Assembly: GCA_028713655.1 (NCBI GenBank) | Contig: JAQTNW010000009.1 | Coordinates: 8,474 to 72,473 of the forward strand | Length of the DNA stretch: 64,000 bases | Direction of reading: 5' to 3' | Source of the DNA: Candidatus Methylacidiphilales bacterium | Lineage (GTDB): Bacteria > Verrucomicrobiota > Verrucomicrobiia > Methylacidiphilales > JAAUTS01 | Translations under genes and position numbers: made by a program | Shown here: positions 685-57,712 of the stretch, piece by piece | Position numbering within the stretch: the stretch's first letter is position 1 | Layout: the number at the start of each line of letters is the position of its first letter | The notes under the pieces: generated by a model | Told to the model about the DNA's origin: nothing | The model's input: the letters and a program-made list of their open reading frames with translations, nothing else | Database searches by the model: none

Positions 685-771
685 TCTGCATATTTCATAC
701 TCATTTCAATGGTCAACCCGTTAGCGCCGGGACCTAACAGCGGAAAGACACGCGCTGGGCCTATGCAGGCT
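685..771 (+). repeat. R9 hairpin element, copy 1 (CTGCATAT...TATGCAG termini)
   Basis: About 80 nt nearly identical to the reverse complement of 42776-42851 (CTGCATATTTCATAyTCATTTCAATGGTCAACCyGTTAGCrCCGGGACsTAACAGCGGAAAGACACG). Inverted termini. Confidence 0.7.
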
Positions 772-785
772 CTTGCAAAACCGAC

Positions 786-1142
786 TCAGACGCCGTCGGA
801 CCTGGCCTGCTGCAGCCGCGCCATGATCATTCCGCGCGCGGCCTGGAATCCCCTGTAATAGGATTGGGCCTTGTTCACGATACGCCAAAGGCCGACCGCT
901 TTGTCGGCCAAGCCGCCCAGATGAATTTTTTTGCCCAAACCGGTAACGGCAAAAAGCCCGCCCAATGGAATCAGGACGAGCAGGGCCGGACCCATACGCG
1001 ATGCCAGCGCCCGCCCCGTTTGAACCCAGCCAAGTTGTTTGTTGAGATACTCGACTTCGGCCACCAGTCCGGCGCGCTGCAATTCGCTGTCCTGAACCAG
1101 GCGCGCCTTGCGGAGCCGGATTTCTGTCAATCCTTGCAGCAT
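786..1142 (-). CDS. YqjK-like small membrane protein
   Basis: 118-aa ORF with a coiled N-terminus and one TM (GPALLVLIPLGGLFAVTGL). Third gene of a yqjD/yqjE/yqjK-like trio; 16-nt overlap with the upstream ORF. Confidence 0.5.
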   Translation of the reverse strand: MLQGLTEIRLRKARLVQDSELQRAGLVAEVEYLNKQLGWVQTGRALASRMGPALLVLIPLGGLFAVTGLGKKIHLGGLADKAVGLWRIVNKAQSYYRGFQAARGMIMARLQQARSDGV

Positions 1143-3305: not shown

Positions 3306-3904
3306 TTCAACCGCGCGAGTTGGAGGCTGAGCTTGGCCCCGGTGTGGCCGTGTGTTTCAAGAATGCTCATAAATTCAGGCCGGAAAAACACGAGAAGGCG
3401 GGTGTCGGCGGCCGCCACGGCCGAGGCCATGCGCGGGAATCCTTCCAGCAAGGCCATTTCACCAAAATAACTGCCCGGGCCGAGGCGAGCCAATTCGCTT
3501 TTGCCACTCGCGCCCTTGCGCTGGATTTTTACTTCGCCCTCAACCACGATATACATTCCGAGGCCCTCGTCCCCTTCGTCAAAAATGACCTCCTCGGCGA
3601 TGTAATTCCGTTCGTGCAGGATATGTTCCACCCACTTGAGTTCCTGGGTCTTCAGGGTGGAAAAGAGGGCTACCTTTCTCAGGACCGCCAGCCGCTCGGA
3701 TGCCGCTTCGTTGTTCTTGCCAAAAAGTCCCACGCCTCTATCTACCCGTGCTTTGGCCCCATTGGCAACGTCGAAAATGGCTGAACTTACGGTTATTAGC
3801 CCGGATGTGGGTACTCCTCTGTTTTTGCCCGGTCTTTCGACAGGGCACTTTGCAGGGGTTTGCAGGAGCGTGTGAAACATCCGGGCTATGAACAGATTGG
3901 ACAA
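3251..3904 (-). CDS. Cyclic nucleotide-binding domain protein
   Basis: LFSTLKTQELKWVEHILHERNYIAEEVIFDEGDEGLGMYIVVEGEVKI...GPGSYFGEMALLEGFPRMASAVA, including the FGE(M/L)AL...R(S/T)A cNMP-binding signature. The first ~57 codons overlap repeat R1, so the real start is probably GTG at 3733. Confidence 0.8.
   Translation of the reverse strand: MSNLFIARMFHTLLQTPAKCPVERPGKNRGVPTSGLITVSSAIFDVANGAKARVDRGVGLFGKNNEAASERLAVLRKVALFSTLKTQELKWVEHILHERNYIAEEVIFDEGDEGLGMYIVVEGEVKIQRKGASGKSELARLGPGSYFGEMALLEGFPRMASAVAAADTRLLVFFRPEFMSILETHGHTGAKLSLQLARLNCARLRESSTPLFPGSYT
3797..3888 (-). repeat. R1 stem-closed element, copy 1 (minus orientation)
   Basis: TAGCCCGGATGT (3797-3808) pairs with ACATCCGGGCTA (3877-3888). 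The loop is collinear with copy 39525-39606 (TTTCACaCGCTyCTG..CAAAGTGyCCTG..AAAGACCGGGCAAAA). Confidence 0.8.
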
Positions 3905-6324: not shown

Positions 6325-7143
6325 ATGAAAAATAAAAACCTCTCCGATTATATCATCGCCGCCGCCGTCATCGGTTGCAGCGCCGTGCTGCTGACAGCCC
6401 TGACCATCGCCCTCACCGGCTGGGAAAGCAAGTCCGGCGGAAAAATCATCCTGGTCGATATGCCCTCGGTCATCGGCTTGCGCGAAAACTCGCAGGTGCG
6501 TTATGCGGGCGCCCATGTCGGCAAGGTCATGAGCATCAAGCCGCTGGCCTGGAACGAACGCGCCAATCCGAAATACGCCGTGCGGATCATGGTCAAAATC
6601 ACAGGCCCCATGCCGGATCTCAAAGAGGATTCCATCGCCTCCATCAATTCGGACACCATTCTGGCGGAAAAATTCCTGGATATCTCTCCCGGCTCGCCCG
6701 AAGCCCGGAATCTCCCGCCCAACCAGCCTTTGCTCTGCCGCGATGTTGCCAGCTTCGACGACCTTTCGCGCGCGGGCATGAATTCTCTGACCCGGCTGAA
6801 TGACATTCTGGACAAATTGCAAAACGATCACAGCGATCTGCCGGCGAAGATCAGTTCGATGCTCGATAACGCCGATATGCTCGCAAAAAATGCCGATACA
6901 CTTGTCAAACAACTCAACGTGGTTCTCAAGGAACACGAACACGACATGGATCAGGGGATCCAGGATTTGCGGGTTGTCATGCAAAACATGAAGGTGGTCT
7001 CCACCTACGCCAAGACGCTGAGTGGAACGCTGGCCCACAAACCGTGGCGGATTGTCTGGGGCACAACGCCCAACGAACTTCCCTCGGAAGCTGAAATTCT
7101 AAAAGCAGACAAGCCCATCCCGGCAACCATGCCCAAGGAATAG
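6325..7143 (+). CDS. mlaD: MlaD/MCE-domain substrate-binding protein
   Basis: N-terminal TM (IIAAAVIGCSAVLLTALTIAL), then an MCE-like beta domain (VRYAGAHVGKVMSIKP) and a helical tail. Position after mlaE/mlaF. Confidence 0.8.
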   Translation: MKNKNLSDYIIAAAVIGCSAVLLTALTIALTGWESKSGGKIILVDMPSVIGLRENSQVRYAGAHVGKVMSIKPLAWNERANPKYAVRIMVKITGPMPDLKEDSIASINSDTILAEKFLDISPGSPEARNLPPNQPLLCRDVASFDDLSRAGMNSLTRLNDILDKLQNDHSDLPAKISSMLDNADMLAKNADTLVKQLNVVLKEHEHDMDQGIQDLRVVMQNMKVVSTYAKTLSGTLAHKPWRIVWGTTPNELPSEAEILKADKPIPATMPKE

Positions 7144-7220
7144 GCGGCAAAAATTCAAAAGTCTCAACTGTACACAACGGGCGCAAATCTACACAGATGA
7201 GAAACATGACAGACCGGAAT

Positions 7221-7344
7221 GGGAGCGCGGGCGTCCCGCCTGCTCAGAGAGGCATCCTGCCTCTCGATCATTTTTATGGATTTTTTACAGATGCAGGACT
7301 GTTGGGCAAGATGCCCAACAGAGCGGGCGGGACGCCCGCTCTCC
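7221..7344 (-). repeat. R4 GC-rich triloop-hairpin palindromic element
   Basis: GGGAGCGCGGGCGTCCCGCCTGCTC AGAGAGGCATCCTGCCTCTCG ... GTTGGGCAAGATGCCCAAC AGAGCGGGCGGGACGCCCGCTCTCC. Homologous to 33830-33962, with the central part inverted. Confidence 0.75.
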
Positions 7345-7385
7345 GGGAAAATCCGATCCAGGCAGCATAACCCCAACCTGCGCCC

Positions 7386-11409: not shown

Positions 11410-11772
11410 ATGAGTACAAAATTATATGTCGGGAACCTTGCGTTCCAAGTCACAGAAACCGATCTCCAGGATCTGTTTACACAACACGGGGCCGTCAGCG
11501 AAGTGCATGTCGTCCTCGACCGCGTTACCGCGCGCCCTCGCGGCTTTGCCTTTGTCACGATGGCTGACGCCGAAGGCGCCAAGGCAGCCATTGAAGCGCT
11601 CGACGGAAAAGATTTCCAGGGCCGCACCCTGACGGTCAATGAGGCCCGTCCTCCTGAACCCCGCAGCTTCGGCGGCGGCGGTGGTGGTGGTGGTGGCCGC
11701 GGTTTCGGTGGCGGCGGCGGCGGCGGTGGCCGTGGTGGCAAACGCGATTTCGGTCGCGGTGGACGTCGCTAA
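11410..11772 (+). CDS. RRM-type RNA-binding protein with Gly/Arg-rich tail
   Basis: RNP2 KLYVGNL and RNP1 RGFAFVTM. C-terminus [32 protein letters not shown]. Confidence 0.9.
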
Positions 11773-12050: not shown

Positions 12051-12086
12051 TTTATCTGTGTCCATCCGTGTTTATCCGTGGTTCAG
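12051..12086 (+). repeat. R5 10-bp-phased triple repeat
   Basis: TTTATCTGTG TCCATCCGTG TTTATCCGTG GTTCAG. A degenerate TTTCGTG variant lies just upstream (11995-12030). Confidence 0.8.
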
Positions 12087-12160
12087 GCTTCTTGTCCCCT
12101 TTCGTGTCTTTTCAGGGGTAACCGGGTTGACTTTGGTCCCTGATGTTTCATATTTATCCC

Positions 12161-16798: not shown

Positions 16799-16890
16799 TT
16801 GACCCGGATGCAGTTGCGCCCTTATTCCGCGCGGCCTTTTGGCAAGACCCTTTGGAGGGCTTTCCAGAGGCGGGTGAAACATCCGCGCTA
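16799..16890 (-). repeat. R1 element, degenerate copy (minus orientation)
   Basis: Collinear with 3797-3888: TGACCCGGATGC...CTTTGGAGGGCTTTCCAGAGGCGGGTGAAACATCCGCGCTA. The stem is only partly complementary. Confidence 0.6.
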
Positions 16891-17349
16891 AGGCAACAGC
16901 ACCAGCGCATGCATCATATAGTCGGTCCACTGTTGCCAGGTCAGGATTCCTTCCAGGCTGGAACCATCTTCATAGGGGCACCAGACCTTCAATCCATCCG
17001 CGTCCGCGTCCAGGAGCAGCATGCAGTGGTAAATCGCGGATAATTCCCCGTCCACAAGCATGCGTTCCGTGTAAAGAAAAATTCCGCTGACATGCCGGTC
17101 GCCATAATGACTTTGATACTTTAGCACCAGATCCTTGTCCACGGTTACGATGCTGTTTTTTGCAATGCCCAAATCCCGGGCAATCTCCAAAATCGAAAAC
17201 TCATTGGTCGAACCGGGTTGCCGGAACCAGGAGGTGTATTTTCTCGAAAACTCATCCAGGAAATCGGCTTCGGCGATATCGCGGCCATTCCGCCCCGCCA
17301 ATTCGATCAGACAGCGGCATGCATTTCCAAATGTGTTAAGGTTTTGCAT
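16888..17349 (-). CDS. Hypothetical cytoplasmic protein; possible papain-like (C39-like) cysteine peptidase fold
   Basis: 153 aa. N-terminal QNLNTFGNACRCLIELAGRNG and C-terminal IYHCMLLLDADADGLKVWCPYEDG resemble the Q..C..CL / H-strand-turn-acidic layout of C39-type domains. Weak, by eye only. Confidence 0.45.
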   Translation of the reverse strand: MQNLNTFGNACRCLIELAGRNGRDIAEADFLDEFSRKYTSWFRQPGSTNEFSILEIARDLGIAKNSIVTVDKDLVLKYQSHYGDRHVSGIFLYTERMLVDGELSAIYHCMLLLDADADGLKVWCPYEDGSSLEGILTWQQWTDYMMHALVLLP

Positions 17350-17592
17350 ATGAATACCTGTCCGGCGCCGTCTAACGCAGATCGGAATATAAAAGCGAAA
17401 CTCTAAATATCAGGATTTCTCCAAATGCTAATCCCCCTGAATTTTTATCACCATGAGCTCATCCAAACTGCCTGATGTAATTCTGGCCTCGGGTTAAACG
17501 AAGAGCGAGTCAAATAAGCGAGGACATATCGCATATTCATCCGTTCGCACATTCCCGCTGGCTTTTACAATGGCCTCTGCTAAATTGCAGTC

Positions 17593-18507
17593 ATGTCCCT
17601 AACCCGGATGCGAATGCCTCACCCGCTTCTGAAAAGCCCTCAAGGTACTGGACAAGAAGAGGGTAACCAAGCATCCGGGTTAAATGCAAAACCGTCTGAA
17701 TGGGATTTTTTATTGAAACATAAACTCCAAATTTTGAGGCGGTTTTGCAATAGCCTGCATGCTCCCGGAGTTTTCCTTCCTCCTCGCAGGAAAGAAAGAC
17801 ATGCGGCGCAATTTCCAAAGAAGACTGAGGCATGCAGGCTAAAGCATCTGGTTTTGGGAGTTGGTTTTGCGTGTTTATCCCTCGCGCTCACTGCAGCCGC
17901 CGGCGACAAGGATTTCGGGCGCGACCCCGAAGCCATTTATTTCAGCGATCTTGGCGACCAAAAACCCATTATCCTCAAGGTCGAAAAAGTCGTCGGAGTT
18001 TATGCCGACCGGAACCTGAGCGCCTACATGCGCAATTTCCAGGCAGGCGATGACGTCCAATTGCTGGCCTATAACCCCGATGCCTACTTTGTCAGGCACC
18101 TCAAAAGCGGATACGAAGGCTGGGTGGCAAAGGAAAATCTCAGTAAAATCGACAAAGACCAGTTGGACACCCTTCTCGCGCGTGTGGAGGAGGAACGAAA
18201 ATTTGCCGATGCCATAAAAAGGAAGGAGGTCCTGCCCGGCATGACGTTCGACCATGTCAAGGCTGCTCTGGGCAAGCCCACCAGCAAAACCTTCAGGCAG
18301 GATGAAAACGGGCGTTTTGACAAATGGTCGTACATCGATTACGAAACCCGTTATGTAAGCCAGCCGTATTTTGATTCCCGGCAAGGCGCTTATGTCAACT
18401 TGCCCGTGGCAATCAAGGTCGCCGTGGGATCTCTCAACGTGGAATTCAAGAGCGGGCGGGTCACGGCCATTGAACGCACCCGTGACAAAAACGCCGGGGC
18501 AAATTAA
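17593..18507 (+). CDS. Secreted SH3-domain plus SmpA/OmlA (BamE-like) domain protein
   Basis: Signal-like [21 protein letters not shown]3b-like [32 protein letters not shown]. BamE-like [19 protein letters not shown]. The first ~85 codons are repeat R1 sequence, so the real start is probably CTG/TTG near 17848-17854. Confidence 0.6.
17600..17760 (+). repeat. R1 element, copy with second hairpin
   Basis: TAACCCGGATGC (17600) pairs with GCATCCGGGTTA (17671). Then AAAACCGTC...GGCGGTTTTGCAATAGCCTGCAT, shared with 42690-42773. Confidence 0.75.
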
Positions 18508-25428: not shown

Positions 25429-25463
25429 AGTTTAAAGTTTGAAGTTTCAAGTTTTAAGCTTGG
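25429..25463 (-). repeat. R8 heptamer tandem array
   Basis: AGTTTAA AGTTTGA AGTTTCA AGTTTTA AGCTTGG. 7-bp period; reverse complement of the CTTAAAA/CTGAAAC type. Confidence 0.7.
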
Positions 25464-25613
25464 CGCGCAATCCCTCCATCCTCTTCGGGAGCGCGGGCAT
25501 CCTGCCCGCACCGTTGCGCATCTGGAACACTCGCGATTTATCGGAGTTGCGCAACGGATGCCTTTCAATCCGTTCCCCTCAGGGTGTGTTCCGAGCTTTG
25601 ACTTCTGCATTCT

Positions 25614-25642
25614 GAATTCTAAATTCTAAATTCTAAATTCTA
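25614..25642 (+). repeat. R8 heptamer tandem array
   Basis: GAATTCT AAATTCT AAATTCT AAATTCT. Confidence 0.8.
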
Positions 25643-25649
25643 TTTTTTT

Positions 25650-25684
25650 CCGCGTCTTTGCGACTTACGCCCTCTGCGTTAAAA
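25650..25684 (-). repeat. R6 element (TTAACGCAgAGGGCgTAAGtCGCAAAG), inverted copy
   Basis: CCGCGTCTTTGCGACTTACGCCCTCTGCGTTAAAA is the reverse complement of the R6 consensus seen at 32345, 51011 and 54177. Confidence 0.7.
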
Positions 25685-27488: not shown

Positions 27489-27974
27489 ATGAACATTCCA
27501 AAACTCTGCATTTCATCTGTGGAAAGTGCGTCCAACAAAACCCCCTTTTCTTCCCCCTTGTCAGGGGGATGTCTGCTGCTTTCCTTATTTGCGTTCATCC
27601 GCGTTCATCCGCGGTTAAAATGCTTCTTTTCGTGCCTTGGCGTCTTCGTGGTTGTTTTCGCCTTCACATTTTCAACACCCGCCCCGGTCCACGCCCAAAG
27701 CCAGCCTGAAATGAACGCCGAAGCCGCTGCGCGGTTCGAAAAATACGACAAGGAACTGAACCGCGTTTATCAGGGCATCCTCAAAGGCCTCGACGCCGAG
27801 GGGCAAAAGAAATTGAAAGCAGCCGAGGAAGCCTGGATCAAATACCGCGACGCCGAGGCGGCCTTCCAGGCCGACAGCGAACGCGGAGGCTCGCTGTCGA
27901 ACTACATCTATCTCGACACCCAAGCCACCCTGACCAAGGCGCGAATTGACGCTTTGAAAAAAGGCGGCGGATAG
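27489..27974 (+). CDS. DUF1311/LprI-family lysozyme-inhibitor-like protein
   Basis: YDKELNRVYQGILKGLDAEGQKKLKAAEEAWIKYRDAEAAFQAD...YLDTQATLTKARIDALK. The N-terminal ~45 codons are R7/R5 repeat sequence, so the true start is probably later, before the signal-like FSCLGVFVVVFAFTFSTPAPVHA. Confidence 0.65.
   Translation: MNIPKLCISSVESASNKTPFSSPLSGGCLLLSLFAFIRVHPRLKCFFSCLGVFVVVFAFTFSTPAPVHAQSQPEMNAEAAARFEKYDKELNRVYQGILKGLDAEGQKKLKAAEEAWIKYRDAEAAFQADSERGGSLSNYIYLDTQATLTKARIDALKKGGG
27551..27571. repeat. R7 hairpin (CCCCCT-N4-AGGGGG)
   Basis: TTCCCCCTTGTCAGGGGGATG. Confidence 0.7.
27586..27620 (+). repeat. R5 10-bp-phased triple repeat
   Basis: TTATTTGCG TTCATCCGCG TTCATCCGCG GTTAAAA. Confidence 0.75.
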
Positions 27975-28263: not shown

Positions 28264-28321
28264 GGCAGCCCTGTTCATGGGCAGTCAGTTCACCGCAGGC
28301 GCAGGACGCGGAGAAGCAGTT

Positions 28322-28356
28322 TTATCCGCAGATGAACGCAGATGGGTACAGATTTT
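28322..28356 (-). repeat. R5 10-bp-phased triple repeat
   Basis: TTATCCGCAG ATGAACGCAG ATGGGTACAG ATTTT. Confidence 0.75.
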
Positions 28357-29708: not shown

Positions 29709-31115
29709 ATGGGTAAAACTTTATTTGAAAAAGTCTGGGATGCGCACGCCGTCCGGCAACTCGCCAACGGCCAGACCCAGCTCCTCATCGGCACCCACCT
29801 GATCCACGAGGTCACCAGCCCGCAGGCTTTTGCCATGCTGCGCGACCTCGGCCTCAAGGTGAAGTTCCCCCGCCGCACCTTCGCCACCGTGGACCACATC
29901 GTGCCCACCGACAAGTTCGAGGAGCCCTATGCCGACCCGCTGGCCGACGCCATGATCAAGGAACTGCGCAAAAATTGCGCCCAGTTCGGCGTGACCTTTT
30001 TCGACCGCAGCACCGGACGACAGGGCATCGTCCACATCATCGGGCCTGAACTGGGCATCACACAACCCGGCACCACCATCGCCTGCGGCGACTCGCATAC
30101 ATCCACCCACGGGGCCTTCGGCGCCATCGCCTTCGGCATCGGCACCACCCAGGTGCGCGACGTGCTGGCAACGCAAACCATGGCCATCGGCAAATTGAAG
30201 GTGCGCCGCATCAATGTGGACGGACACTTGCGCCCCGGCGTCTATGCCAAGGACGTGATCCTGCACATCATCCGCAAACTGGGAGTCAACGGCGGCACCG
30301 GCTTCGCCTACGAATACGGCGGCGAGGTCTTCGACCGCTTTTCCATGGAAGAGCGCATGACCGTCTGCAACATGTCCATCGAGGGCGGCGCGCGTGTGGG
30401 CTACGTCAACCCGGATCAAAAGACTTTCGACTTCCTCAACGGTCGCCCTTATTCCCCAAAGGGCGCCGACTGGAACAAGGCCGTCGAACGCTGGAAATCT
30501 TTCGCATCCGACCGCGACGCCACCTACGACGATGTCGTCCGCTTCAAGGCCGAAGACATCGAGCCCACGGTCACCTGGGGCATCAACCCCGGACAGGCCG
30601 TCTTTGTCAGTGAAAACATCCCCACGCTGGCGGAAGTGCCGGAGAGCGACAAAGCCATCACCCAGGAAGCGCTGGAGCACATGAAGTTCGAGCCCGGCTC
30701 CCCCATCAAGGGCAAAAAAATCGACGTTGCCTTTCTCGGCAGTTGCACCAACGGACGGCTGAGCGATTTCCAGGAAGCCGCAAAGTTTCTGCAAGGCCAT
30801 AAAGTCGCCCCCGGCGTCAAAGCCATCGCAGTCCCCGGTTCGCAGGTGGTCGCGATCCTGTGCCACGACCTGGGCATCGACAAAATTTTTCAGGAAGCCG
30901 GGTTCGAATGGCGCGACGCGGGTTGTTCCATGTGCCTGGCCATGAATCCTGACAAATTGGTCGGCGACCAGCTCTGCGCCAGCTCCAGCAACCGCAACTT
31001 CAAGGGCCGGCAAGGCAGCGTCACCGGACGCACCCTGCTGATGAGCCCCGTCATGGTCGTGGCCGCCGCCGTCACCGGAAAGGTCGCCGACCCGCGCGAG
31101 GTCTTCCATTCCTAA
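29709..31115 (+). CDS. leuC: 3-isopropylmalate dehydratase large subunit
   Basis: [13 protein letters not shown]...[12 protein letters not shown]...[13 protein letters not shown]...GSCTNGR...CSMCLAMN. Confidence 0.95.
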
Positions 31116-31162
31116 TTCCTAATTCCTAATTCATACTTCTTACCTTCTACCTCTTACTTACT
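31107..31162 (+). repeat. R8 heptamer tandem array filling the leuC-leuD spacer
   Basis: CATTCC TAATTCC TAATTCC TAATTCA TACTTCT TACCTTC TACCTCT TACTTAC. 7-bp period from the leuC stop to the leuD ATG. Confidence 0.7.
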
Positions 31163-31765: not shown

Positions 31766-31810
31766 GGAAATGATGAAGTAAGAATTCAGAATGCAGAAAA
31801 ACTTTCAAGA

Positions 31811-31845
31811 GAACCACAGACGGACGCGGATCAACACGGATAAAA
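31811..31845 (-). repeat. R5 10-bp-phased triple repeat
   Basis: GAACCACAGA CGGACGCGGA TCAACACGGA TAAAA. Confidence 0.7.
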
Positions 31846-32344: not shown

Positions 32345-32378
32345 ATTAACGCAAAGGGCATAAGGCGCAAAGCCGCAA
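32345..32378 (+). repeat. R6 element
   Basis: ATTAACGCAAAGGGCATAAGGCGCAAAGCCGCAAG. Confidence 0.75.
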
Positions 32379-32429
32379 GAAAACAAACACTTTTTACAGG
32401 GAGAACACAACTAACAAAACTCCCTTGTC

Positions 32430-32456
32430 TTCCCCCTTATCAGGGGGATAAATGCC
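32430..32456. repeat. R7 hairpin
   Basis: TTCCCCCTTATCAGGGGGATAAATGCC. Confidence 0.75.
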
Positions 32457-32498
32457 TCTTGTGCCTACGCCTGGGAATGGTTTTACATTGGAACCGCT

Positions 32499-33823: not shown

Positions 33824-33829
33824 TCCAAA

Positions 33830-33962
33830 GGGAGCGCAGGCGTCCCGCCTGCTCTGCCGGGCATCCTGCCCGGCAGTCCTCGCATCTACAGGATTTTTAA
33901 TGAATACAAAAGCAACCGAGAGGCAGGATGCCTCTCGGAGCAGGCGGGACGCCCGCGCTCCC
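33830..33962 (+). repeat. R4 GC-rich triloop-hairpin palindromic element
   Basis: GGGAGCGCAGGCGTCCCGCCTGCTC TGCCGGGCATCCTGCCCGGCA ... CGAGAGGCAGGATGCCTCTCG GAGCAGGCGGGACGCCCGCGCTCCC. Confidence 0.8.
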
Positions 33963-33999
33963 GGAGAATCCAACGCCTCGATTTAAATCGAGAAGCCTT

Positions 34000-36687: not shown

Positions 36688-36700
36688 AACTGAAAAAACT

Positions 36701-36790
36701 AGCCTGCTTATCTCGCACGCGTCACGAGAATTCCCCTTCTGGTTTTTTCACCCGCTGGCGGGAAGAAAAACGCCGGGGGATAAGCAGGCT
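36701..36790 (+). repeat. R2 stem-closed element (AGCCTGCTTATC...GATAAGCAGGCT)
   Basis: 12-bp perfect terminal inverted repeat around a 66-nt loop (..CACGAGAATTCCCCTTCTGG..GGCGGGAAGAAAAA..). Confidence 0.8.
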
Positions 36791-37512: not shown

Positions 37513-39435
37513 ATGCAGAAGCCTCCGGAACCCTGGACCCTGGAACAATCCTTCCAGGCCTACAACATCGACCGCTGGGGCGGCGAATATTTTTCGATCA
37601 ACGCGGCCGGCAACATCAGCGTACGCCCCAAAAGAGCCAACGGCCCCGAGCTGGATTTGTATGAGGTCGCCAACGAGGCCCGCAGCCGCGGGCTGGCCCT
37701 GCCCTTCCTCATCCGCTTCCAGGATCTGCTGCGCCACCAGGTTGTCACCATCAACGAGAGCTTCGCCGCCGCCATCCGGGAGTTCAACTTCCAGGGCCAA
37801 TACCGCGGCGTCTTTCCCATCAAGGTCAACCAGTTGCGCGAGGTGGTGGAGGAAATCGAAGACGCCGGGCGCCCCTACAATTTCGGCCTGGAAGTCGGCA
37901 GCAAGCCGGAACTTTTCGCCGCGCTGGCAATGCATCAAAACCCGGAAAGCCTGCTCATCTGCAACGGCTACAAGGACACCGAATTTATCCGCATGGCGTT
38001 GCTGGGCCGCAAGCTGAACAAAAAAGTCGTGATGGTGATCGAGAAGATCGAGGAACTCCACCGGGTCCTCAGCGTCGCGGAACAAATGGGCGTCGAACCC
38101 ATCGTCGGCATCCGCGTGCGCCTGCAAACCAAGGGCGCAGGCAAATGGGCGCTCTCGGGAGGCGAAGACGCCAAGTTCGGCCTTTCCACCGCCGAACTCC
38201 TTGAAGCCACTGAACTGCTCAAGCAACGCGGCATGGAACGGGTTCTCCAGCTCCTCCATTTCCATGTCGGCTCGCAAATCCCCGACATCCTCACGGTCAA
38301 ACGGGCCGTTCGCGAAGCCACGCGCTATTACGCCAAGCTCCGGAAGATGGGCTTCGAGATCTGTTATCTGGACGTCGGCGGCGGCCTGGGGGTGGATTAC
38401 AACGGCACCCGCACGGCATCGGAAAGCTCGACCAATTACACGCTCGACGAATACACGCGCGATGTCGTTTACAATATTTCCGAAATTTGCGCCGAGGAAA
38501 AAGTACCTCACCCGAACATCGTCAGCGAAAGCGGGCGGGCGACAGTGGCCTACCATTCCGTCCTGCTGGTCGAAGTGTTTGGCGCGATTGAAAAAACCAA
38601 GTCGGACGGGAGCGACATCCCCCAGCCGACGGAAGAGGGCCACAAACTGGTCCGCGACATGATTGAGGTGCTCAAGAAACTGAACAAGCGCAACCGCCGC
38701 GAGTGCCTGCACCAGGCCAAGCTGATCAAGGAGGACGCTTCCACGCGCTTTGAAGTCGGCCTGCTCGACCTGAAAGACAAGGCCCTGATCGAGACCGGGT
38801 TTTGGAAAGTGGCGGAAAGCGTCGTGTCCATGTATCAGGGCTCAAAAAGCACGCCGGATGAAGTGCGGGAGCTGCAGACCCAATTGGCCGACCAGTTCCT
38901 TTGCAATTTTTCGGTGTTCCAGTCCCTCATCGACCACTGGGCGGTCGGCCAGCTTTTCCCCATTGCGCCGATCCACCGCCTGACCGAGGCGCCCCTGCAC
39001 CAGGCGACGTTGGTGGACATCACCTGCGATTCCGACGGCAAGATCGACACCTTCATTGATGATGAGGATGTCCGCCACACCCTGCCGCTGCACAGCCCGA
39101 ACGGCCAGCCCTACATCCTCGGGTTCTTCCTGATGGGGGCCTATCAGGACGTGATGGGCGATCTGCACAACCTCTTCGGCCCGGTGACGGAGGCCCATGT
39201 CTTTCTGGACGAGGACGAGCCCTCCGGCTTTTACATTGAGGAGGTCATCCAGGGCTATAACATAGGGCAAGTGCTAAGCGACGTGCAGTATGAAACCAAC
39301 GTACTCAGCCGCGAAATGAAGGCCCAGATCGACGCCGCCATCAAGGCCGACGTGCTCAAGCCCAATGAAGGCATGCGCCTGCTTGAGGAATACGAAAAGG
39401 GGCTCACAAAACCCACCTATCTTTCCTTCGATTAA
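37513..39435 (+). CDS. speA: Biosynthetic arginine decarboxylase
   Basis: 640 aa. YNIDRWGGEYFSIN...FPIKVNQLREVVEEI...HFHVGSQI...YLDVGGGLGVDY...ESGRA. Confidence 0.95.
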   Translation: MQKPPEPWTLEQSFQAYNIDRWGGEYFSINAAGNISVRPKRANGPELDLYEVANEARSRGLALPFLIRFQDLLRHQVVTINESFAAAIREFNFQGQYRGVFPIKVNQLREVVEEIEDAGRPYNFGLEVGSKPELFAALAMHQNPESLLICNGYKDTEFIRMALLGRKLNKKVVMVIEKIEELHRVLSVAEQMGVEPIVGIRVRLQTKGAGKWALSGGEDAKFGLSTAELLEATELLKQRGMERVLQLLHFHVGSQIPDILTVKRAVREATRYYAKLRKMGFEICYLDVGGGLGVDYNGTRTASESSTNYTLDEYTRDVVYNISEICAEEKVPHPNIVSESGRATVAYHSVLLVEVFGAIEKTKSDGSDIPQPTEEGHKLVRDMIEVLKKLNKRNRRECLHQAKLIKEDASTRFEVGLLDLKDKALIETGFWKVAESVVSMYQGSKSTPDEVRELQTQLADQFLCNFSVFQSLIDHWAVGQLFPIAPIHRLTEAPLHQATLVDITCDSDGKIDTFIDDEDVRHTLPLHSPNGQPYILGFFLMGAYQDVMGDLHNLFGPVTEAHVFLDEDEPSGFYIEEVIQGYNIGQVLSDVQYETNVLSREMKAQIDAAIKADVLKPNEGMRLLEEYEKGLTKPTYLSFD

Positions 39436-39522
39436 CCTGTTTATCTCAGATGTGTTGTGAGAATTCCCCCTCTGGCGTGTTCAGCCGTTGGCGGGAAGAA
39501 AAATTCCGGGAATAAGCAGGCT
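39436..39522 (+). repeat. R2 stem-closed element, copy 2
   Basis: CCTGTTTATC...GAGAATTCCCCCTCTGG...GGCGGGAAGAAAAATTCCGGGAATAAGCAGGCT. Abuts R1 copy 39525-39606. Confidence 0.75.
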
Positions 39523-39524
39523 AT

Positions 39525-39606
39525 TAGCCCGGATGTTTCACTCGCTTCTAAAAAGTGTCCTGCCAAAAGACCGGGCAAAATCAGGGATGCATCCACATCC
39601 GGGCTA
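39525..39606 (+). repeat. R1 stem-closed element, copy 2
   Basis: TAGCCCGGATGT TTCACTCGCTTCTAAAAAGTGTCCTGCCAAAAGACCGGGCAAAATCAGGGATGCATCC ACATCCGGGCTA. Confidence 0.8.
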
Positions 39607-39665
39607 AAAATACCCATTTTTCCTATTGGCAAAGGCAAAACCCTGCGCTAGAACGATTGGCTCTT

Positions 39666-40427
39666 ATGCCGAAAAAAGCTTCTAAAACGTCCAAGACGAA
39701 AAAGGCCAGGAAAGCCTCCGCGGTCCACAAACCCAAGGCCTCTTCAGCTAAAAAGGCCAATACTCCGTCTTCCAAAGCCGCTTCCAAGAAGAAGGGCAAA
39801 GGCCAGGTGAAGAAGCATTCGCCCTCGCCCCTTCACAAGGGTGACAAAAAAATATTCGGCAAGCCCCCTTTCCCCATCAAAGGCCCCAAACCCCAGAATT
39901 TGGAACGGTCAGCCGCCATATCCAAAGAGGAAGCCAAAAGAAACCGCGCCCTCAGCCCGAAGTTTCTGGAGCAGCAAAAGAAAAAGCTTTTGGATCTCCG
40001 CGACCATATCCTGGACCAGATGCAGGGTGTCGCGCAGGACAATCTGCGTTCCCGCCCAGAAGGAAACGAAGCCTCGGCCTTCGGCATGCACCAGGCGGAC
40101 GCGGGCAGCGATGCCTACGAAAAGGATTTCGCCCTCAGCCTGCTTTCACAGGAGCAAGACGCCCTTTACGAGATCGAGCAATCCCTTAAGCGCATCGACT
40201 CGGGCCTCTATGGCATTTGTGAAATGTCCGGCAAGCCGATTCCGATGAACCGCATGGAAGCCATCCCCTTCGCCCGTTATACGGTTGAATGCCAGGCCCA
40301 GATGGAAAAAGAGCAAAAGGGCAAAAATCGCTGGGACACAGCGCCCCAATTCATGGATTCTGCGGAAGGCTTCTTCGAAGAGGAAGAAACCGAGGAAGAC
40401 GAAGAAAAGCAAAAGGTAAAGGATTAA
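39666..40427 (+). CDS. DksA/TraR-family protein with Lys/Ala/Ser-rich histone-H1-like N-terminal extension
   Basis: N-terminus [50 protein letters not shown]. Coiled coil [13 protein letters not shown]-terminus [38 protein letters not shown] at 39666; the ORF-track start 39555 lies in repeat R1. Confidence 0.75.
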
Positions 40428-41375: not shown

Positions 41376-41660
41376 ATGCCCGCCAACTCGTCATTTGATT
41401 GCGAAACCATGGTGGACACCTTCCTGCTCAACCTGCTCCGCTGCCCGGAAACCATGCAGCAGCTCCACCTCGCCCCGGGTTCGCAAATCGACAAGATCAA
41501 CCAAGCCATCCAGTCCGGCGCCTGCAAGAACCGTTCCGGCCAGCGTGTACTAACCCCCATCGAAACCGGCCTTGTCCGGGATGATGGCCGCATTCTATAC
41601 CCGGTCCGCAATGAAATCCCTGTGATGCTTGTGGACGAATCCATCCCCCTGGATTCTTGA
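41376..41660 (+). CDS. Trm112/YcaR-family (UPF0434) protein
   Basis: LLNLLRCPETMQQLHLAP...ILYPVRNEIPVMLVDESIPL. Confidence 0.75.
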   Translation: MPANSSFDCETMVDTFLLNLLRCPETMQQLHLAPGSQIDKINQAIQSGACKNRSGQRVLTPIETGLVRDDGRILYPVRNEIPVMLVDESIPLDS

Positions 41661-41673
41661 ATCTTAATTTCAT

Positions 41674-42027
41674 GTGACTAACCCGGATGCCTCAATCAGC
41701 GTCGGGCTGCTTCTGACCACAGCGCACAACCACCCGTCGTTCGCGGCCTTTTGCCGGTGCGCCCGGCAGTCTCTGGCTTCGGGACATCCCACCTACGCCT
41801 ACCTGCTTTACGATGCGGTCCTCTGCGCTTCCCATCCCGAACTTCAAAAACTCCAGTCGTCCGGCCTTAAAATCCATGCCTGCGCGGAAGCGGTCTTCAA
41901 CCGCAAAATCGAAGTCCCCGAATCCATCGTATTGTCCGGACTGGGCAGCCTGGCCCAGTTCATTAAGCATACTGGTCGATTTGCGGCCTTTTCCAGCCAT
42001 GAAAACAGTCCTAATTGTTGCGTCTGA
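41674..42027 (+). CDS. DsrE/TusD-like sulfur-relay family protein
   Basis: KIHACAEAVFNRKIEV..IVLSGLGSLAQFIKHTGRFAAF aligns by eye with the TusD/DsrE C-terminal half (ICVAAALRRG...LSGLGALAEA...VVQF), including the Cys. Confidence 0.6.
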   Translation: MTNPDASISVGLLLTTAHNHPSFAAFCRCARQSLASGHPTYAYLLYDAVLCASHPELQKLQSSGLKIHACAEAVFNRKIEVPESIVLSGLGSLAQFIKHTGRFAAFSSHENSPNCCV

Positions 42028-42331: not shown

Positions 42332-42335
42332 AACA

Positions 42336-42379
42336 GAACCGCGGATAAACACGGATTCACACGGATTCACACGGATAAG
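42336..42379 (-). repeat. R5 10-bp-phased repeat, four units
   Basis: GAACCGCGGATAAA CACGGATTCA CACGGATTCA CACGGATAAG. Confidence 0.8.
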
Positions 42380-42525
42380 AATAACAAATTTTTACATGCT
42401 TCCTTTTGCGATTTTTGCGCCTTCCCGCTCGCGACGAATGTCGGAGTTTGCGGCCAACCTTCAATATCTTTTCGTCTTTCTTCGTGGCTTCGAGCCTTCG
42501 TGTGAGAATTTGTTCCACCTGCTTC

Positions 42526-42773
42526 TAACCCGGATGTTTCACACGCTTCTGAAAACCTCAGCAAAGTGTCCTGCTCCAAAGTGTGGCAGGAACTGGGGTG
42601 CAGGAACTGGGGTGCAGGAACTGGGGTGCAGGAACTGGGGTGCAGGAACTGGGGTGCAGGAACTGGGGTGCAGGAACATCCGGGTTACAAGCAAAACCGC
42701 CTGAATGGGTATTTTGTTTTGATTTTTGAATTGGAACTGCCTTATTTGGAGGCGGTTTTGCAATAGCCTGCAT
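42526..42773 (+). repeat. R1 element, expanded copy with second hairpin
   Basis: TAACCCGGATGTT (42526) pairs with AACATCCGGGTTA (42675). The loop carries the 14-bp tandem array. Then AAAACCGCC (42693)...GGCGGTTTT (42751) GCAATAGCCTGCAT. Confidence 0.8.
42587..42677 (+). repeat. Perfect 14-bp tandem repeat, 6 full copies plus a 7-nt partial
   Basis: (CAGGAACTGGGGTG)x6 + CAGGAAC, counted directly in the sequence. Confidence 0.95.
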
Positions 42774-42851
42774 ATGCTCTGTACGTGTCTTTCCGCTGTT
42801 ACGTCCCGGTGCTAACAGGTTGACCATTGAAATGAATATGAAATATGCAGG
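42764..42851 (-). repeat. R9 hairpin element, copy 2
   Basis: TAGCCTGCATAT (42764) and ATATGCAGGCTA (42840) form a perfect 12-bp inverted repeat. The interior is the reverse complement of 685-760. Confidence 0.8.
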
Positions 42852-42895
42852 CTAAGTCTTGAAACTTCAGCCCGAAACTGGAAACTGGTACTCCC

Positions 42896-44814: not shown

Positions 44815-44887
44815 GATTTTAATTTAAACCCCGGCAACGCCGTGTCCATCCTTAACCGCAAAAACACAGAACACGGAAGAAAACCTT

Positions 44888-44922
44888 TTATCCGCAGATG
44901 GACGCAGATTTCCACAGATGAG
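44888..44922 (-). repeat. R5 10-bp-phased triple repeat
   Basis: TTATCCGCAG ATGGACGCAG ATTTCCACAG ATGAG. Confidence 0.75.
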
Positions 44923-44936
44923 AAAATTGGGGCTTT

Positions 44937-44964
44937 CTTAAAACTTTAAACTTAAGACTTAAAA
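44937..44964 (+). repeat. R8 heptamer tandem array
   Basis: CTTAAAA CTTTAAA CTTAAGA CTTAAAA. Confidence 0.75.
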
Positions 44965-44971
44965 CATGAAG

Positions 44972-45006
44972 AGAACCACGGATGGACACGGATGTACGCG
45001 GATTAA
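44972..45006 (-). repeat. R5 10-bp-phased triple repeat
   Basis: GAACCACGGA TGGACACGGA TGTACGCGGA TTAAA. Confidence 0.75.
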
Positions 45007-45020
45007 AACTAGGCTGGCAC

Positions 45021-45048
45021 CATCCCCCTGAGAAGGGGGATAAATGCG
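45021..45048. repeat. R7 hairpin
   Basis: ATCCCCCTGAGAAGGGGGATAAATGCGG. Confidence 0.75.
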
Positions 45049-45093
45049 GCTTGTTCCAAGCAATAATAGTTTTTCCTCTGCGTTCTCAGCACC

Positions 45094-48954: not shown

Positions 48955-48993
48955 TTTTATCTGCGTTTATCTGCGTCCATCTGCGGTTCAAAA
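48955..48993 (+). repeat. R5 10-bp-phased triple repeat
   Basis: TTTTATCTGCG TTTATCTGCG TCCATCTGCG GTTCAAAA. Confidence 0.8.
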
Positions 48994-49036
48994 CGTTTTT
49001 TCTTCCGTCTTTTGCGGCCAACAAAACCCCCTCGCC

Positions 49037-49061
49037 TTCCCCCTTGTCGGGGGGATAACAC
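49037..49061. repeat. R7 hairpin
   Basis: TTCCCCCTTGTCGGGGGGATAACAC. Confidence 0.7.
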
Positions 49062-49074
49062 AAATCAGCACCCG

Positions 49075-51010: not shown

Positions 51011-51045
51011 ATTAACGCAGAGGGCATAAGGCGCAAAGACGCGGG
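51011..51045 (+). repeat. R6 element
   Basis: ATTAACGCAGAGGGCATAAGGCGCAAAGACGCGGG. Confidence 0.75.
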
Positions 51046-51070
51046 TTTAAATCACGAAAGAAGGCGGAAA

Positions 51071-51105
51071 CTTGAAACTGAAAACTTAAGACTTAAGACT
51101 TAAAA
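51071..51105 (+). repeat. R8 heptamer tandem array
   Basis: CTTGAAA CTGAAAA CTTAAGA CTTAAGA CTTAAAA. Confidence 0.8.
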
Positions 51106-51112
51106 CTCTTCC

Positions 51113-54176: not shown

Positions 54177-54213
54177 ATTAACGCAAAGGGCATAAGGCGC
54201 AGAGGCGCAAAAG
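54177..54213 (+). repeat. R6 element
   Basis: ATTAACGCAAAGGGCATAAGGCGCAGAGGCGCAAAAG. Confidence 0.75.
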
Positions 54214-54466: not shown

Positions 54467-56593
54467 ATGAAAAACATTCTCCTGCTCGCTTCAGCCGGTC
54501 TGGCGACCCTGCTCATCGGCATTGCCGGAGGGCGTTACCTGCTTCCGGCATCTTCGCCTTCCCCCTTGTTTTCCGGGCACAAGGAAACATCGCCATCCGG
54601 AGGGACAAAACCTTCCGGGTCCAGTTCGCAATTGTTGGCCGAAACGAATCCAACTTCCGGCACGGGGCCATCCGCCTCAACAGCGCCCAAGGATCTCGCC
54701 TCAATCCTCAATGAGCCGAACGGCTATCGCAAGCAGCGCGACCTTTACCTCTACGCCGACACCCTCGCAGCCAAGGACATCCCGGAAGCCTTGAAACAGA
54801 TCAACGCCATGCCCATGAGCATGGACAAATATTTGGCCCTGTCCACGCTCGGCGGACGGTGGGCGGAACTTGATCCCGAAGGCGCACTGGCGTACTCGGA
54901 TAAAGCGCTTAAAGGTACTGACAAATCATTGGCCTACTCCATTATCGGCAGTGTCTATGGCTCTCTCGCGGCATCCAACCCGGAACACGCTCTGGGCCTG
55001 GCCCAAAAAATAGAAGACACCCAGCAACGGAGCATCGCCACGCAGGCCATTTTGAGCCAGCTCGCACAGCAGGACCCAGCCAAGGCGCTTCAACTGGCGC
55101 AAAGCGTCAAGGACCAAAGCCGAAATTGGATATACCAAAACATTTTCAGCACGATGGCCTCCAAGGACCCGGCGCAAGCCTCGCAAATGGCGCTGCAGTT
55201 GCCCGCAGGCGAACAACGCCGGCAGGCAATCCAGGGCGTCGCCATGTCTTGGGCTCAAAAAGACCGCCCCGCCGCGCTTGCCTGGCTGGAGCAACTTCCT
55301 TCCGGCAACGATCAAAACATGGCCATGCAAACTATTGTCTCCAACTGGGCCGCGTCGGATCCAAAAGCGGCCGCCGCTTACATCGACAACATCCCCAGCA
55401 CAGGGCAAAAGAACAACCTGATCTCCAGCATCGCCTGGCAATGGGCGCAAAATGATACCCCGAGCGCCCTCGAATGGGCGCAAAAGCTGCCGCCTTCCCA
55501 GGCGAAAAGCTCCGCCTTGCAACAAATCACATCCCAGTGGGCGCAAAAAGACCCCAAAGCCGCCGCCGCATTCGTCGATACCCTTCCCCCGGGCAACCAA
55601 AAAAATAACATCGTCAGATCCATCGCCATACAATGGGCCAACACCGATGTTCCCTCGGCATTGGACTGGGTGCAAAAATTGCCCGACGGCCAGAACCGCA
55701 ACAACGCCTTGCAAAACATCGTTTCCCAATGGGCGCACAACGACCCCAAAGCCGCCGTGCAATACGCCCAGTCGATCCAACAAGCCAGCGCGCGCGGCGA
55801 TGTGCTAAGATCGGCCGCCTCTCAATGGGTCAGCAGCGACCCCGCAGCGGCCATCGACTGGCTCAAGTCCCTCCCCGAAGGTGAAAGCAAAAACCAGGTG
55901 ATCAACGGCATCAGCTACCAGTGGGCCAGCAACGACCTCAAATCAGCGGCAACTTTTGCGCTCACATTGCCTCCGGGACAAGCCCAAACCAACATGATCA
56001 ATGCCGTTGCCAACCAATGGAGTTCGGAAGACCCGGCCAAGGCGCTTGCGTGGATCGGGCAATTGAGCGAGGGCGACGCGAAGAACCAGGCAATGTCCAG
56101 CGCTGTGGGCCAATGGGCCGGAAATGACCCGAAGGCTGCTGCGACCTACATCAATTCGATGCAGGAGGGCGACGCCAAGAATAACGCCATCAGCTCGGTG
56201 GCAAGCCGCTGGGGCGACTCGGATCCGGCGGCGGCGGCGCAGTGGCTTTCCAACCTCCCGGACAACAATCAGAAGACCAACGCCATGTCCAACATCGCCA
56301 GCCAGTGGGGGCGCAATGATCCTGAAAAAGCCTCCGTCTGGCTGGATAAACTGCCGGCCGGGCCTTCACGCGACGCGGCCGTCCGTTCCTTTTCAACCCA
56401 GGTCATCAACGCCGACCCCGAGGGCGCCTACATGTGGGCCGCCAGCATCGGGGATGAAAACAATCGCAACAGCCAAGTCCAATACGTCCTCCAACACTGG
56501 ATGAAAATCGACTCCACGGCGGCGGCGGCAGCCGTTCAAAAATCCTCCCTCAGCGACCAGGACAAGCAACGATTACTTCAAATGAAGCGTTAG
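54467..56593 (+). CDS. Membrane-anchored protein made of ~16 tandem ~36-aa helical (HEAT/ARM-like) repeats
   Basis: N-terminal TM NILLLASAGLATLLIGIAGG, then repeated units of the form ..QWAQKDPKAAAAFVDTLPPGNQKNNIVRSIAI.. . Confidence 0.75.
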   Translation: MKNILLLASAGLATLLIGIAGGRYLLPASSPSPLFSGHKETSPSGGTKPSGSSSQLLAETNPTSGTGPSASTAPKDLASILNEPNGYRKQRDLYLYADTLAAKDIPEALKQINAMPMSMDKYLALSTLGGRWAELDPEGALAYSDKALKGTDKSLAYSIIGSVYGSLAASNPEHALGLAQKIEDTQQRSIATQAILSQLAQQDPAKALQLAQSVKDQSRNWIYQNIFSTMASKDPAQASQMALQLPAGEQRRQAIQGVAMSWAQKDRPAALAWLEQLPSGNDQNMAMQTIVSNWAASDPKAAAAYIDNIPSTGQKNNLISSIAWQWAQNDTPSALEWAQKLPPSQAKSSALQQITSQWAQKDPKAAAAFVDTLPPGNQKNNIVRSIAIQWANTDVPSALDWVQKLPDGQNRNNALQNIVSQWAHNDPKAAVQYAQSIQQASARGDVLRSAASQWVSSDPAAAIDWLKSLPEGESKNQVINGISYQWASNDLKSAATFALTLPPGQAQTNMINAVANQWSSEDPAKALAWIGQLSEGDAKNQAMSSAVGQWAGNDPKAAATYINSMQEGDAKNNAISSVASRWGDSDPAAAAQWLSNLPDNNQKTNAMSNIASQWGRNDPEKASVWLDKLPAGPSRDAAVRSFSTQVINADPEGAYMWAASIGDENNRNSQVQYVLQHWMKIDSTAAAAAVQKSSLSDQDKQRLLQMKR

Positions 56594-57650: not shown

Positions 57651-57660
57651 TGCGTTTTTC

Positions 57661-57688
57661 TTAATTCTTAATTCTGACTTCTGAATTC
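57661..57688 (+). repeat. R8 heptamer tandem array
   Basis: TTAATTC TTAATTC TGACTTC TGAATTC. Confidence 0.75.
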
Positions 57689-57712
57689 TCCAGGATTTCC
57701 CGTCATAGAGAG

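Follow-up and report, generated by a model that had tools for sequence, protein, structure and literature searches.

A palindromic repeat upstream of unrelated genes in a Methylacidiphilales genome is probably a TA-targeting, MITE-like element

Introduction

In a 64,000-nt stretch of DNA from a metagenome-assembled genome (MAG) of the Methylacidiphilales, hereafter the window, a palindromic element of 82 nt, here called R1, stands between speA and a dksA-like gene, and further copies precede other genes of the same window. An earlier note on this DNA described five copies, each reading in the direction of the next gene, and proposed that they are either transcribed as a 5' leader structure or are mobile hairpins with a promoter or an attenuator on board. 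The question raised by this locus is whether R1 belongs to the genes that it precedes or reached their spacers by transposition. The comparisons reported here make it very probable that R1 is a non-autonomous, non-coding, TA-targeting element of about 92 nt, similar to the miniature inverted-repeat transposable elements (MITEs) of bacteria (for their definition and behavior see PMC3733652, PMC2229807). It is a new, lineage-specific family of an already known element type, and its apparent link to gene starts results from the small number of copies, together with biases in TA sites and in tolerance.

Materials and Methods

The window was the sole part of its genome that was scanned, and its five R1 copies are labeled C1 to C5 in coordinate order (Table 1), the copy upstream of the dksA-like gene being C4. 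SpeA of the window (37513-39435) is 100% identical to a protein of a Methylacidiphilales MAG. The sister species used for comparison (GCA_030841365.1; contigs L028, L032, and L033) has genes 90-95% identical to those of the window at the DNA level. The more distant relatives were ERZ19032877 (L007 and L030; SpeA 89% identical), the relative represented by L008-L011 (SpeA 84% identical), that represented by L012 (SpeA 80% identical) and ERZ4200879 (L031; cyclic nucleotide monophosphate (cNMP)-binding protein 73% identical). Synteny with the window is retained in the sister species and in the relatives. A profile hidden Markov model (HMM) and a covariance model (CM) were built from the R1 copies and run on the window and on the relatives. 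Orientation was counted over 10 copies, five from the window and five from the sister species, the latter lying within about 13.5 kb of sequence, and the covariation score was computed over 7 copies and compared with 500 shuffles. Promoter positions are those of phylogenetic footprints, not of mapped 5' ends.

Results

R1 copies measure 82-92 nt in the window and 82-95 nt overall, with the exception of C5 (162 nt), which is enlarged solely by a 14-nt x 6.6 tandem array of GCAGGAACTGGGGT at 42586-42677. Their ends follow the pattern TA[G/A]CCCGGATG...CATCCGG[C/T]TA and form the terminal inverted repeat (TIR) expected of a MITE, 11-13 bp long, which is perfect over that length in six of the seven complete copies and continues inward as an imperfect second stem. 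All 10 copies are flanked by TA and no conserved open reading frame (ORF) was found in them, their size and non-coding nature being those of MITEs (about 70-300 bp). The profile HMM recovered all five window copies (E = 8e-13 to 2e-24). With the CM, four of them gave E = 7e-15 to 5e-26 and the fifth, C3, 3e-07, and no further window copy was found by either model. For the exact terminal 11-mer TARCCCGGATG the window has 11 occurrences, as compared to an estimated chance expectation of about 0.06: it marks the ends of C1, C3, C4, and C5, has near-matches in C2, and appears once by coding coincidence at 41679. This last occurrence (TAACCCGGATG), considered as a sixth copy or a solo end, was rejected, being homologous coding sequence of a DsrE-like gene.

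All the copies listed in the earlier note are therefore present, with shorter limits for two of them: the ends there given to C3 and C5 (17760 and 42773) lie beyond the true ones (17682 and 42687), and the added stretch is not part of R1 but a separate module, H, together with the start of another element, R2. The 12-13 bp closing stem that the note attributed to every copy is perfect in C1, C3, C4, and C5; C2 is degenerate and, contrary to the note, does not share the stem of C1, since its own contains two mismatches and two G.T pairs. The copies fold markedly better than shuffled sequences (z = -6.6 for C1, -4.7 for C3 and -3.2 for C4), and their reverse complements fold as well as the sense strand, or better, as expected of a DNA palindrome.

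R1, R2, and a third element, R3, are all about 91 nt long and share the terminal heptamer TA[AG]CC[CT]G, and R1 is one of at least three related families of about this length. R1 copies with A-type ends (TAACCC/GGGTTA) were found in three composites of the form R1-H-R2 (at 17600, 42526 and L032 2393) and in an L028 copy that lies beside R2. The R3 located between speA and dksA is orthologous in the sister species, where it is about 91% identical (counted by eye). In a self-comparison of the window, short repeats at some 30 places added up to about 2.3 kb, so that R1 is one of many spacer repeats in this genome.

Comparison with the sister species uncovered three sites that are polymorphic for the presence of R1. 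An exact empty site is visible in L028, which fuses window position 17599 straight to 17840 and misses the 240-nt R1-H-R2 insertion: the sister reads 'gtcATGttccTGAAGCATC' (junction gtcATGttccTGAAGCATCTGG) where the window reads gtcATGtcccTA-[238 nt]-TAAAGCATC (TAAAGCATCTGG). One dinucleotide (TG) in the empty allele corresponds to two TAs in the filled allele, as is characteristic of a target duplication of 2 bp; the codons CTA and CTG both specify leucine. At the other two sites the element is found in the sister species. In L032, the TAA stop codon of an 83-aa gene (L032 2393-2395) is the starting point of an R1(A-type)-H-R2 composite; the window has TGA there (41658-41660) and no element. 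In L033, R1 abuts ...GGGCTA/ATTGTTGCG, the TA belonging to codon 5 of a DsrE/F-like gene that in the window is uninterrupted at the insertion point ('GTCCTAATTG'; GTCCTAATTGTTGCG). R1 thus has the dispersed copies with presence/absence polymorphism and, at one full site, the target-site duplication of a MITE. A duplication of 3 bp (TAA) was also considered; it agrees with the composite and the L033 copy, but C1 and C4 do not conform to it, and the 2-bp TA was retained.

Three further sites are occupied in both species by different copies. Between speA and dksA the sister (L032) carries R1 at the same junctions and in the opposite orientation, with an interior about 85% identical to that of C4, whose closest copies are C1 and the L028 copy (90% each). 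The stop codon of the 153-aa gene is followed by a forward R1 (C2) in the window, and by R2 and then a reverse R1 in the sister. Upstream of mpl the window has an A-type R1 with its array, followed by H and R2, and the sister a single G-type R1, which ends at the junction where R2 ends in the window. In the sister species a PemK-type toxin-antitoxin pair (L028 7601-8133) lies between the SH3-like and the 153-aa genes, and is absent from the corresponding 243 nt of the window (17350-17592).

Several elements start exactly on an upstream TAA or TAG stop codon, among them R3 at 39433-39435, C2 at 16888-16890 and, in the sister species, R2 (L028 8613-8615) and the R1 of the L032 composite; the stop is regenerated by the TA+A/G end of the element itself, so that stop codons act as tolerated TA targets. 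In two out of three cases of an empty site, the unfilled allele has TG in place of the TA of the filled one (TGA vs. TAA and CTG vs. CTA; window 41658-41660, L028 ~6876). The comparison suggests that differences in occupancy may track the presence of a TA target.

R1 is absent from the orthologous spacers of L007, L008, L012, L030, and L031, in relatives with 80-89% identity to the window in SpeA and 73-75% in the cNMP-binding protein. The spacer between speA and dksA measures 230 nt in the window vs. 59-128 nt in the relatives, and that between the STAS and cNMP-binding genes 642 nt vs. 106-116 nt. Neither R1, R2, R3 nor H was found in 31 kb of sequence of the more distant relatives, and such a quick disappearance with phylogenetic distance also befits a MITE. 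A possible relic of R1 in the L007 spacer (CCGGATCGCCTTCACCCGC) was unsupported by either model, and the 17-20 nt that L021 and L003 share with R1 were taken as chance, having no second arm and weak CM scores. GTDB representative genomes and JGI metagenomes, scanned with the R1-internal pattern CGGATGTTTCACNCGCYYCT, returned 6 and 14 loci, respectively, all without the R1 architecture; the source genome and its close kin apparently lie outside these collections, which limits the orientation test to 10 copies. BLAST of R1 against plasmid and phage collections gave no match. Rfam matched only a tRNA in the whole window at the gathering threshold and, at E <= 1, nothing in the C4 region and only a sub-threshold mir-980, taken as chance, on module H in the C5 region, in agreement with the earlier note, which had recognized no Rfam family in R1.

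The position of R1 with respect to promoters bears directly on a role as leader. Conserved -35/-10 footprints lie just before the start codons of the dksA-like and cNMP-binding genes (Table 1), with R1 upstream of both: 19 nt lie between C4 and the -35 box of the former, and 28 nt between C1 and that of the latter. C1 and C4 would therefore stand upstream of the promoters and outside the 5' untranslated regions of those genes, and not between transcription start and start codon, where a leader is expected. As only 5-11 nt separate the -10 box from the start codon (39626-39668; 3731-3768), the mRNAs of both genes are predicted to be leaderless or nearly so. C3, on the other hand, lies downstream of a promoter-like site (17544-17571) and would be transcribed, as the leader hypothesis demands. 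A promoter and terminator consensus scan detected no promoter-like site in the interior of the five copies; terminator-like sites were likewise missing from their sense strands, with one antisense match inside C4; the R1 loop (58-138 nt) and the lack of a T-run after the stem are not those of an intrinsic terminator.

As the earlier note stated, all five window copies are co-directional with the next gene; their distance from its start is here 59-208 nt. The five genes are the unrelated ones that the note named (encoding a cNMP-binding protein, an XRE-cupin regulator, an SH3-like protein, a DksA-like protein and Mpl). The regularity in direction, which favors a leader, was lost when the sister copies (two forward, three reverse) were added, since seven forward and three reverse copies give a binomial estimate of p about 0.3, which is not significant. 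Orientation is moreover informative only for C2, C4, and C5, located between co-directional genes, C1 lying in a divergent spacer and C3 9 nt inside an ancestral coding sequence. Conservation in the same orientation upstream of orthologs, a further expectation for a leader RNA, was not observed: R1 is absent in the relatives, which keep both genes and promoters, and reversed in L032 at the dksA site.

The closing stem has eight invariant pairs out of 13. Of the two compensatory changes described in the earlier note, that at pair 3 is solid (G-C vs. A-T in the DNA; as RNA, four copies have G-C, two have A-U and one has G.U), while pair 12, mismatched in two further copies, lies at the frayed edge of the stem. 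On the sense strand several consensus pairs are G.U, as could be expected if that strand acted as RNA. The covariation score, 0.123 vs. 0.087 +/- 0.030 in shuffles, was reached by 61 out of 500 shuffles and is not significant, seven copies being below the power of an R-scape-type test, and the covariation term of RNAalifold (+1.09) gave no support either. In view of the confinement of A-type ends to the composites and to an R2-adjacent copy, the double change at position 3 is best read as a single event that marks the composite subfamily, not as repeated compensation at the RNA level.

The C3 composite is inserted 9 nt (after codon 3) inside the ancestral coding sequence of a gene for a secreted SH3-like protein. 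Its 240 nt amount to 80 codons, in frame and free of stops, which produce an ORF of 304 aa (17593-18507), i.e., 224 + 80, the sister ORF (L028 6209-6883) having 224 aa. PGAP places the start of this gene at TTG 17854 (217 aa), downstream of the insertion and with a truncated signal peptide; for the other flanking genes the PGAP starts agree with those of the earlier note. A coding insertion similar to Rickettsia palindromic elements (RPEs) was considered for C3 and is suggestive only, given that two of the six frames are open, that a length multiple of three has a 1-in-3 chance and that the PGAP start is downstream. ORFs extending from inside R1 into dksA (in the window a GTG ORF of 290 aa, 39555-40427; in the sister a call of 319 aa vs. 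253 aa, L032 203-1162) are an annotation artifact of open frames in repeats.

Table 1. Coordinates of R1 copies, associated elements, promoter footprints and other repeats in the window.
Feature	Position	Strand	Description
R1 copy C1	3797..3888	-	92 nt; G-type termini TAGCCCGGATGT/ACATCCGGGCTA; in divergent STAS<->cNMP spacer
R1 copy C2	16800..16890	-	Degenerate; first three bases TAG = stop codon of 153-aa gene (16888-17349)
R1 copy C3	17600..17682	+	A-type termini TAACCC/GGGTTA; first module of 240-nt composite 17600-17839
R1 copy C4	39525..39606	+	82 nt; G-type; between element R3 and dksA promoter
R1 copy C5	42526..42687	+	A-type; 162 nt; holds tandem array
Module H	17683..17750	+	Hairpin CAAAACCGYCTGAA...GAGGCGGTTTTG; TA-bounded; after A-type R1 C3
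Module H, second copy	42688..42763	+	After C5; sub-threshold Rfam mir-980 match
R2 element	17751..17841	+	91 nt; inverted ends TAGCCTGCAT...ATGCAGGCTA; third composite module
R2 element	42764..42854	+	91 nt; third module of second composite; ends 41 nt before mpl start codon
R2-family copy	686..787	-	Degenerate termini; directly 3' of a gene's stop codon
R3 element	39433..39523	+	91 nt; TAACCTGTTTATC...ATAAGCAGGCTA; first bases TAA = speA stop codon; immediately 5' of C4
Further R3 copies	36700-36790 and 57580-~57650		
dksA promoter footprint, conserved	39626..39654	+	TTGGCA-N17-TAGAAC; hexamers invariant, spacer varies, 5 genomes; 11 nt before ATG
cNMP-gene promoter footprint, conserved	3739..3768	-	TTGCCA-N18-TAGATA; 3 genomes; 5 nt before GTG start
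10-nt arrays	2027-2066, 12054-12093, 27587-27626, 48959-48998, 42332-42380, 44969-45007, 31807-31845, 28320-28353, 44886-44919		
Heptamer arrays	25429-25462, 25609-25642, 31108-31132, 44937-44965, 51068-51107, 57658-57689		

Discussion

As a MITE-like element, R1 would be moved in trans by a transposase binding the termini TA[G/A]CC[C/T]G, and would insert at a TA dinucleotide, which is duplicated. Because each insertion leaves TA on both sides, elements could stack side by side (R3-R1; R1-H-R2), and the R1(A-type)-H-R2 stack appears to have spread in turn as a composite. Insertions would survive where they do little harm, i.e., in spacers upstream of promoters, on TAA/TAG stop codons and occasionally in first codons, and the closing "stem" would be the inverted repeat of the transposon. 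The TA duplication by itself points to a transposase of the IS630/Tc1-mariner-like type. The copies are presumably neutral, and any regulatory effects of R1 would be incidental.

Several observations weigh against this interpretation. No transposase was found among the 29 window proteins scanned against Pfam, nor any autonomous element with matching ends. The perfect TIR of R1 is shorter than the 15-30 bp quoted as usual for MITEs (PMC3733652). TA is also part of the palindrome, and a single empty site that can be seen in full demonstrates its duplication, the two further empty sites being compatible with duplication and showing one junction each; since two of the three empty alleles have TG and not TA, a substitution must be assumed. 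Moreover, the three shared occupied sites could hold old orthologs that underwent inversion or conversion in situ, instead of new insertions, and some copies may have acquired a function.

Among known systems, RUP of Streptococcus pneumoniae, a 107-bp MITE with TA targets for which IS630-Spn1 is the proposed mobilizer (PMC2229807), may be considered the closest analog. Both elements are non-coding, about 100 nt long and provided with TIRs, insert at TA, and are dispersed in mostly intergenic positions beside other mobile elements (PMC2229807 for RUP); on the side of R1, this likeness is seen in TA on both flanks, in TA or TG where a site is empty, and in its stacking with neighboring elements. 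They differ in that RUP is tied to IS630-Spn1 by TIR similarity, whereas R1 has no known partner insertion sequence; the two were compared by description, not by sequence, and their hosts are Firmicutes and Verrucomicrobiota, respectively. Correia/NEMIS elements of Neisseria, with TIRs of 26 bp and TA flanks, are small palindromic MITEs like R1, but they possess a site for integration host factor, documented promoters and RNase III processing, while R1 has perfect TIRs of 11-13 bp and no promoter-like site inside. They occur beside and inside genes, are co-transcribed as hairpins, and comprise sub-families and length variants (PMC2229807). RPEs are also palindromic repeats able to sit in frame within ORFs (PMC3733652), a condition that recalls the C3 composite; RPEs are, however, CGTC-tagged and typically kept inside functional proteins, whereas here the PGAP gene start is downstream and the in-frame state may be due to chance.

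A broader proposal starts from the same mobility. R1, R2, and R3 could form one TA-targeting MITE superfamily, currently active in this uncultured lineage, whose permissive TA sites are nearly saturated, with the same spacers being re-hit or the hairpin interior flipped in place and occupancy differing mainly at TG/TA. In that case selection for a role as insulator or at 3' ends could account for the recurrence of copies on stop codons and at 19-28 nt before -35 boxes. Taken as a whole, we consider this improbable.

R1 might also be mobile in origin and later co-opted as a stabilizer of RNA 3' ends, as a terminator or insulator, or as an upstream promoter element. The upstream genes on whose stop codons C2 and R3 begin are co-directional with them and devoid of a canonical terminator, C1 and C4 end close to -35 boxes, and a GC-rich hairpin with a T-rich run, a putative intrinsic terminator, occupies in L008 the place of R3 and R1; REP (repetitive extragenic palindromic) and Correia elements have furthermore been reported to affect mRNA stability (PMC3733652, PMC2229807). 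Yet no T-run follows the R1 stem, the scan gave no sense-strand terminator, and orientation, companions and presence vary between the sister species at the same sites, while placement on stop codons and in AT-richer sequence upstream of promoters is what TA targeting and purifying selection would produce. Co-option seems quite unlikely, and no observation calls for it.

We regard as very unlikely that R1 is a palindrome of the REP/BIME (bacterial interspersed mosaic element) type, spread as a single-stranded DNA hairpin by a transposase of the RAYT (REP-associated tyrosine transposase) kind, related to the IS200/IS605 HUH tyrosine transposases. R1 resembles these repeats in being an interspersed, hairpin-forming palindrome, often just after genes, that takes part in spacer mosaics with head-to-head and head-to-tail arrangements and orientation flips; many other short palindromic families occur in the window, and REPs with the GTAG tag are reported to abound in the verrucomicrobium Opitutus terrae (PMC3733652). 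Neither end of R1, however, carries a GTAG or CGTC tag, the bases preceding TAGCC/TAACC varying among A, T, and C, and its units are about 91 nt long instead of the 20-40 nt that define REPs (PMC3733652). No RAYT gene was found among the ORFs scanned in the window. The empty-site dinucleotide and the TA at either flank agree with duplication of the target, which transposases of the HUH type (IS200/IS605 family) are not known to produce.

That R1 is a cis-regulatory RNA, i.e., a sense-acting 5' leader or attenuator transcribed with the downstream gene, is hardly credible and has been largely refuted, as it fails on position, conservation and orientation in spite of the good folding of the sense strand and of the double change in one stem pair. 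Of the two proposals made in the earlier note, mobility is accordingly upheld by the sister polymorphisms and the TA flanks, whereas a leader or regulatory hairpin conflicts with promoters lying downstream, with the reversed and missing copies and with the lack of an internal promoter-like site.

The finding opens no new mechanism, and its practical value lies in annotation and assembly. R1-type elements inflate spacers, tempt gene callers to N-terminal extensions (the 319-aa dksA call in the sister species; the 290-aa and 304-aa ORFs in the window) and can pass for structured RNAs when motifs are screened. Short-read assemblies are typically broken by such repeats, in agreement with which each of the sister contigs L028, L032, and L033 has an end within a copy of R1 or R2. 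The Logan short-read contig that covers the C4 region in the same organism is only 2.9 kb long, a hint of assembly breaks near repeats, although its ends were not traced to one. R1-type elements are also markers for typing at the strain and species level, and they document recent transposon activity and reuse of TA sites in a poorly known verrucomicrobial order.

Other Repeats in the Window

Further repeat families were noted in the spacers of the window. A GC-rich palindromic family (GGGAGCGCGGGCGTCCCGCCTGCTC...; 7218-7354, 33827-33971, 25482-25527) forms inverted dimers about 45-50 nt apart and has a REP/BIME-like look. Arrays with a 10-nt period (ATCCGCGTTT and CACGGATTCA types, 3-4 units) occur on both strands close to gene ends, and a stretch akin to them lies upstream of mpl in L012. 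Many spacers contain AT-rich heptamer tandem arrays of 4-6 units (AGTTTGA, ATTCTAA, ATTCCTA, CTTAAAA, AAACTTA, TTCTGAA), which resemble the short tandemly repeated repetitive (STRR) heptamers of cyanobacteria. A hairpin family with TCCCCCTT..AGGGGGA (AACAAAACCCCCT...; 27534-27581, 32413-32460, 49020-49067, 45023-45057) may be terminator-like or REP-like, and a 34-nt repeat, ATTAACGCAAAGGGCATAAGGCGCAAAGNCGCAA, is present in four copies (32345-32378, 51011-51044, 54177-54210 and, inverted, 25650-25682). Another spacer repeat (...CGCTYGCGACGAATGTCGGAGT...) was observed upstream of mpl in the window (42406-42452) and beside the SH3-like gene in the sister species (L028 ~6940-6990).

Two repeats lie within coding sequence. 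The 708-aa ORF at 54467-56593 has internal repeats with a 192-nt period (55250-56333), thus encoding a repeat protein, and gave only a weak ELYS match in Pfam; the ORF at 11410-11772 contains a Gly-rich coding repeat of CGG/TGG triplets with a 42-nt period (11661-11759).

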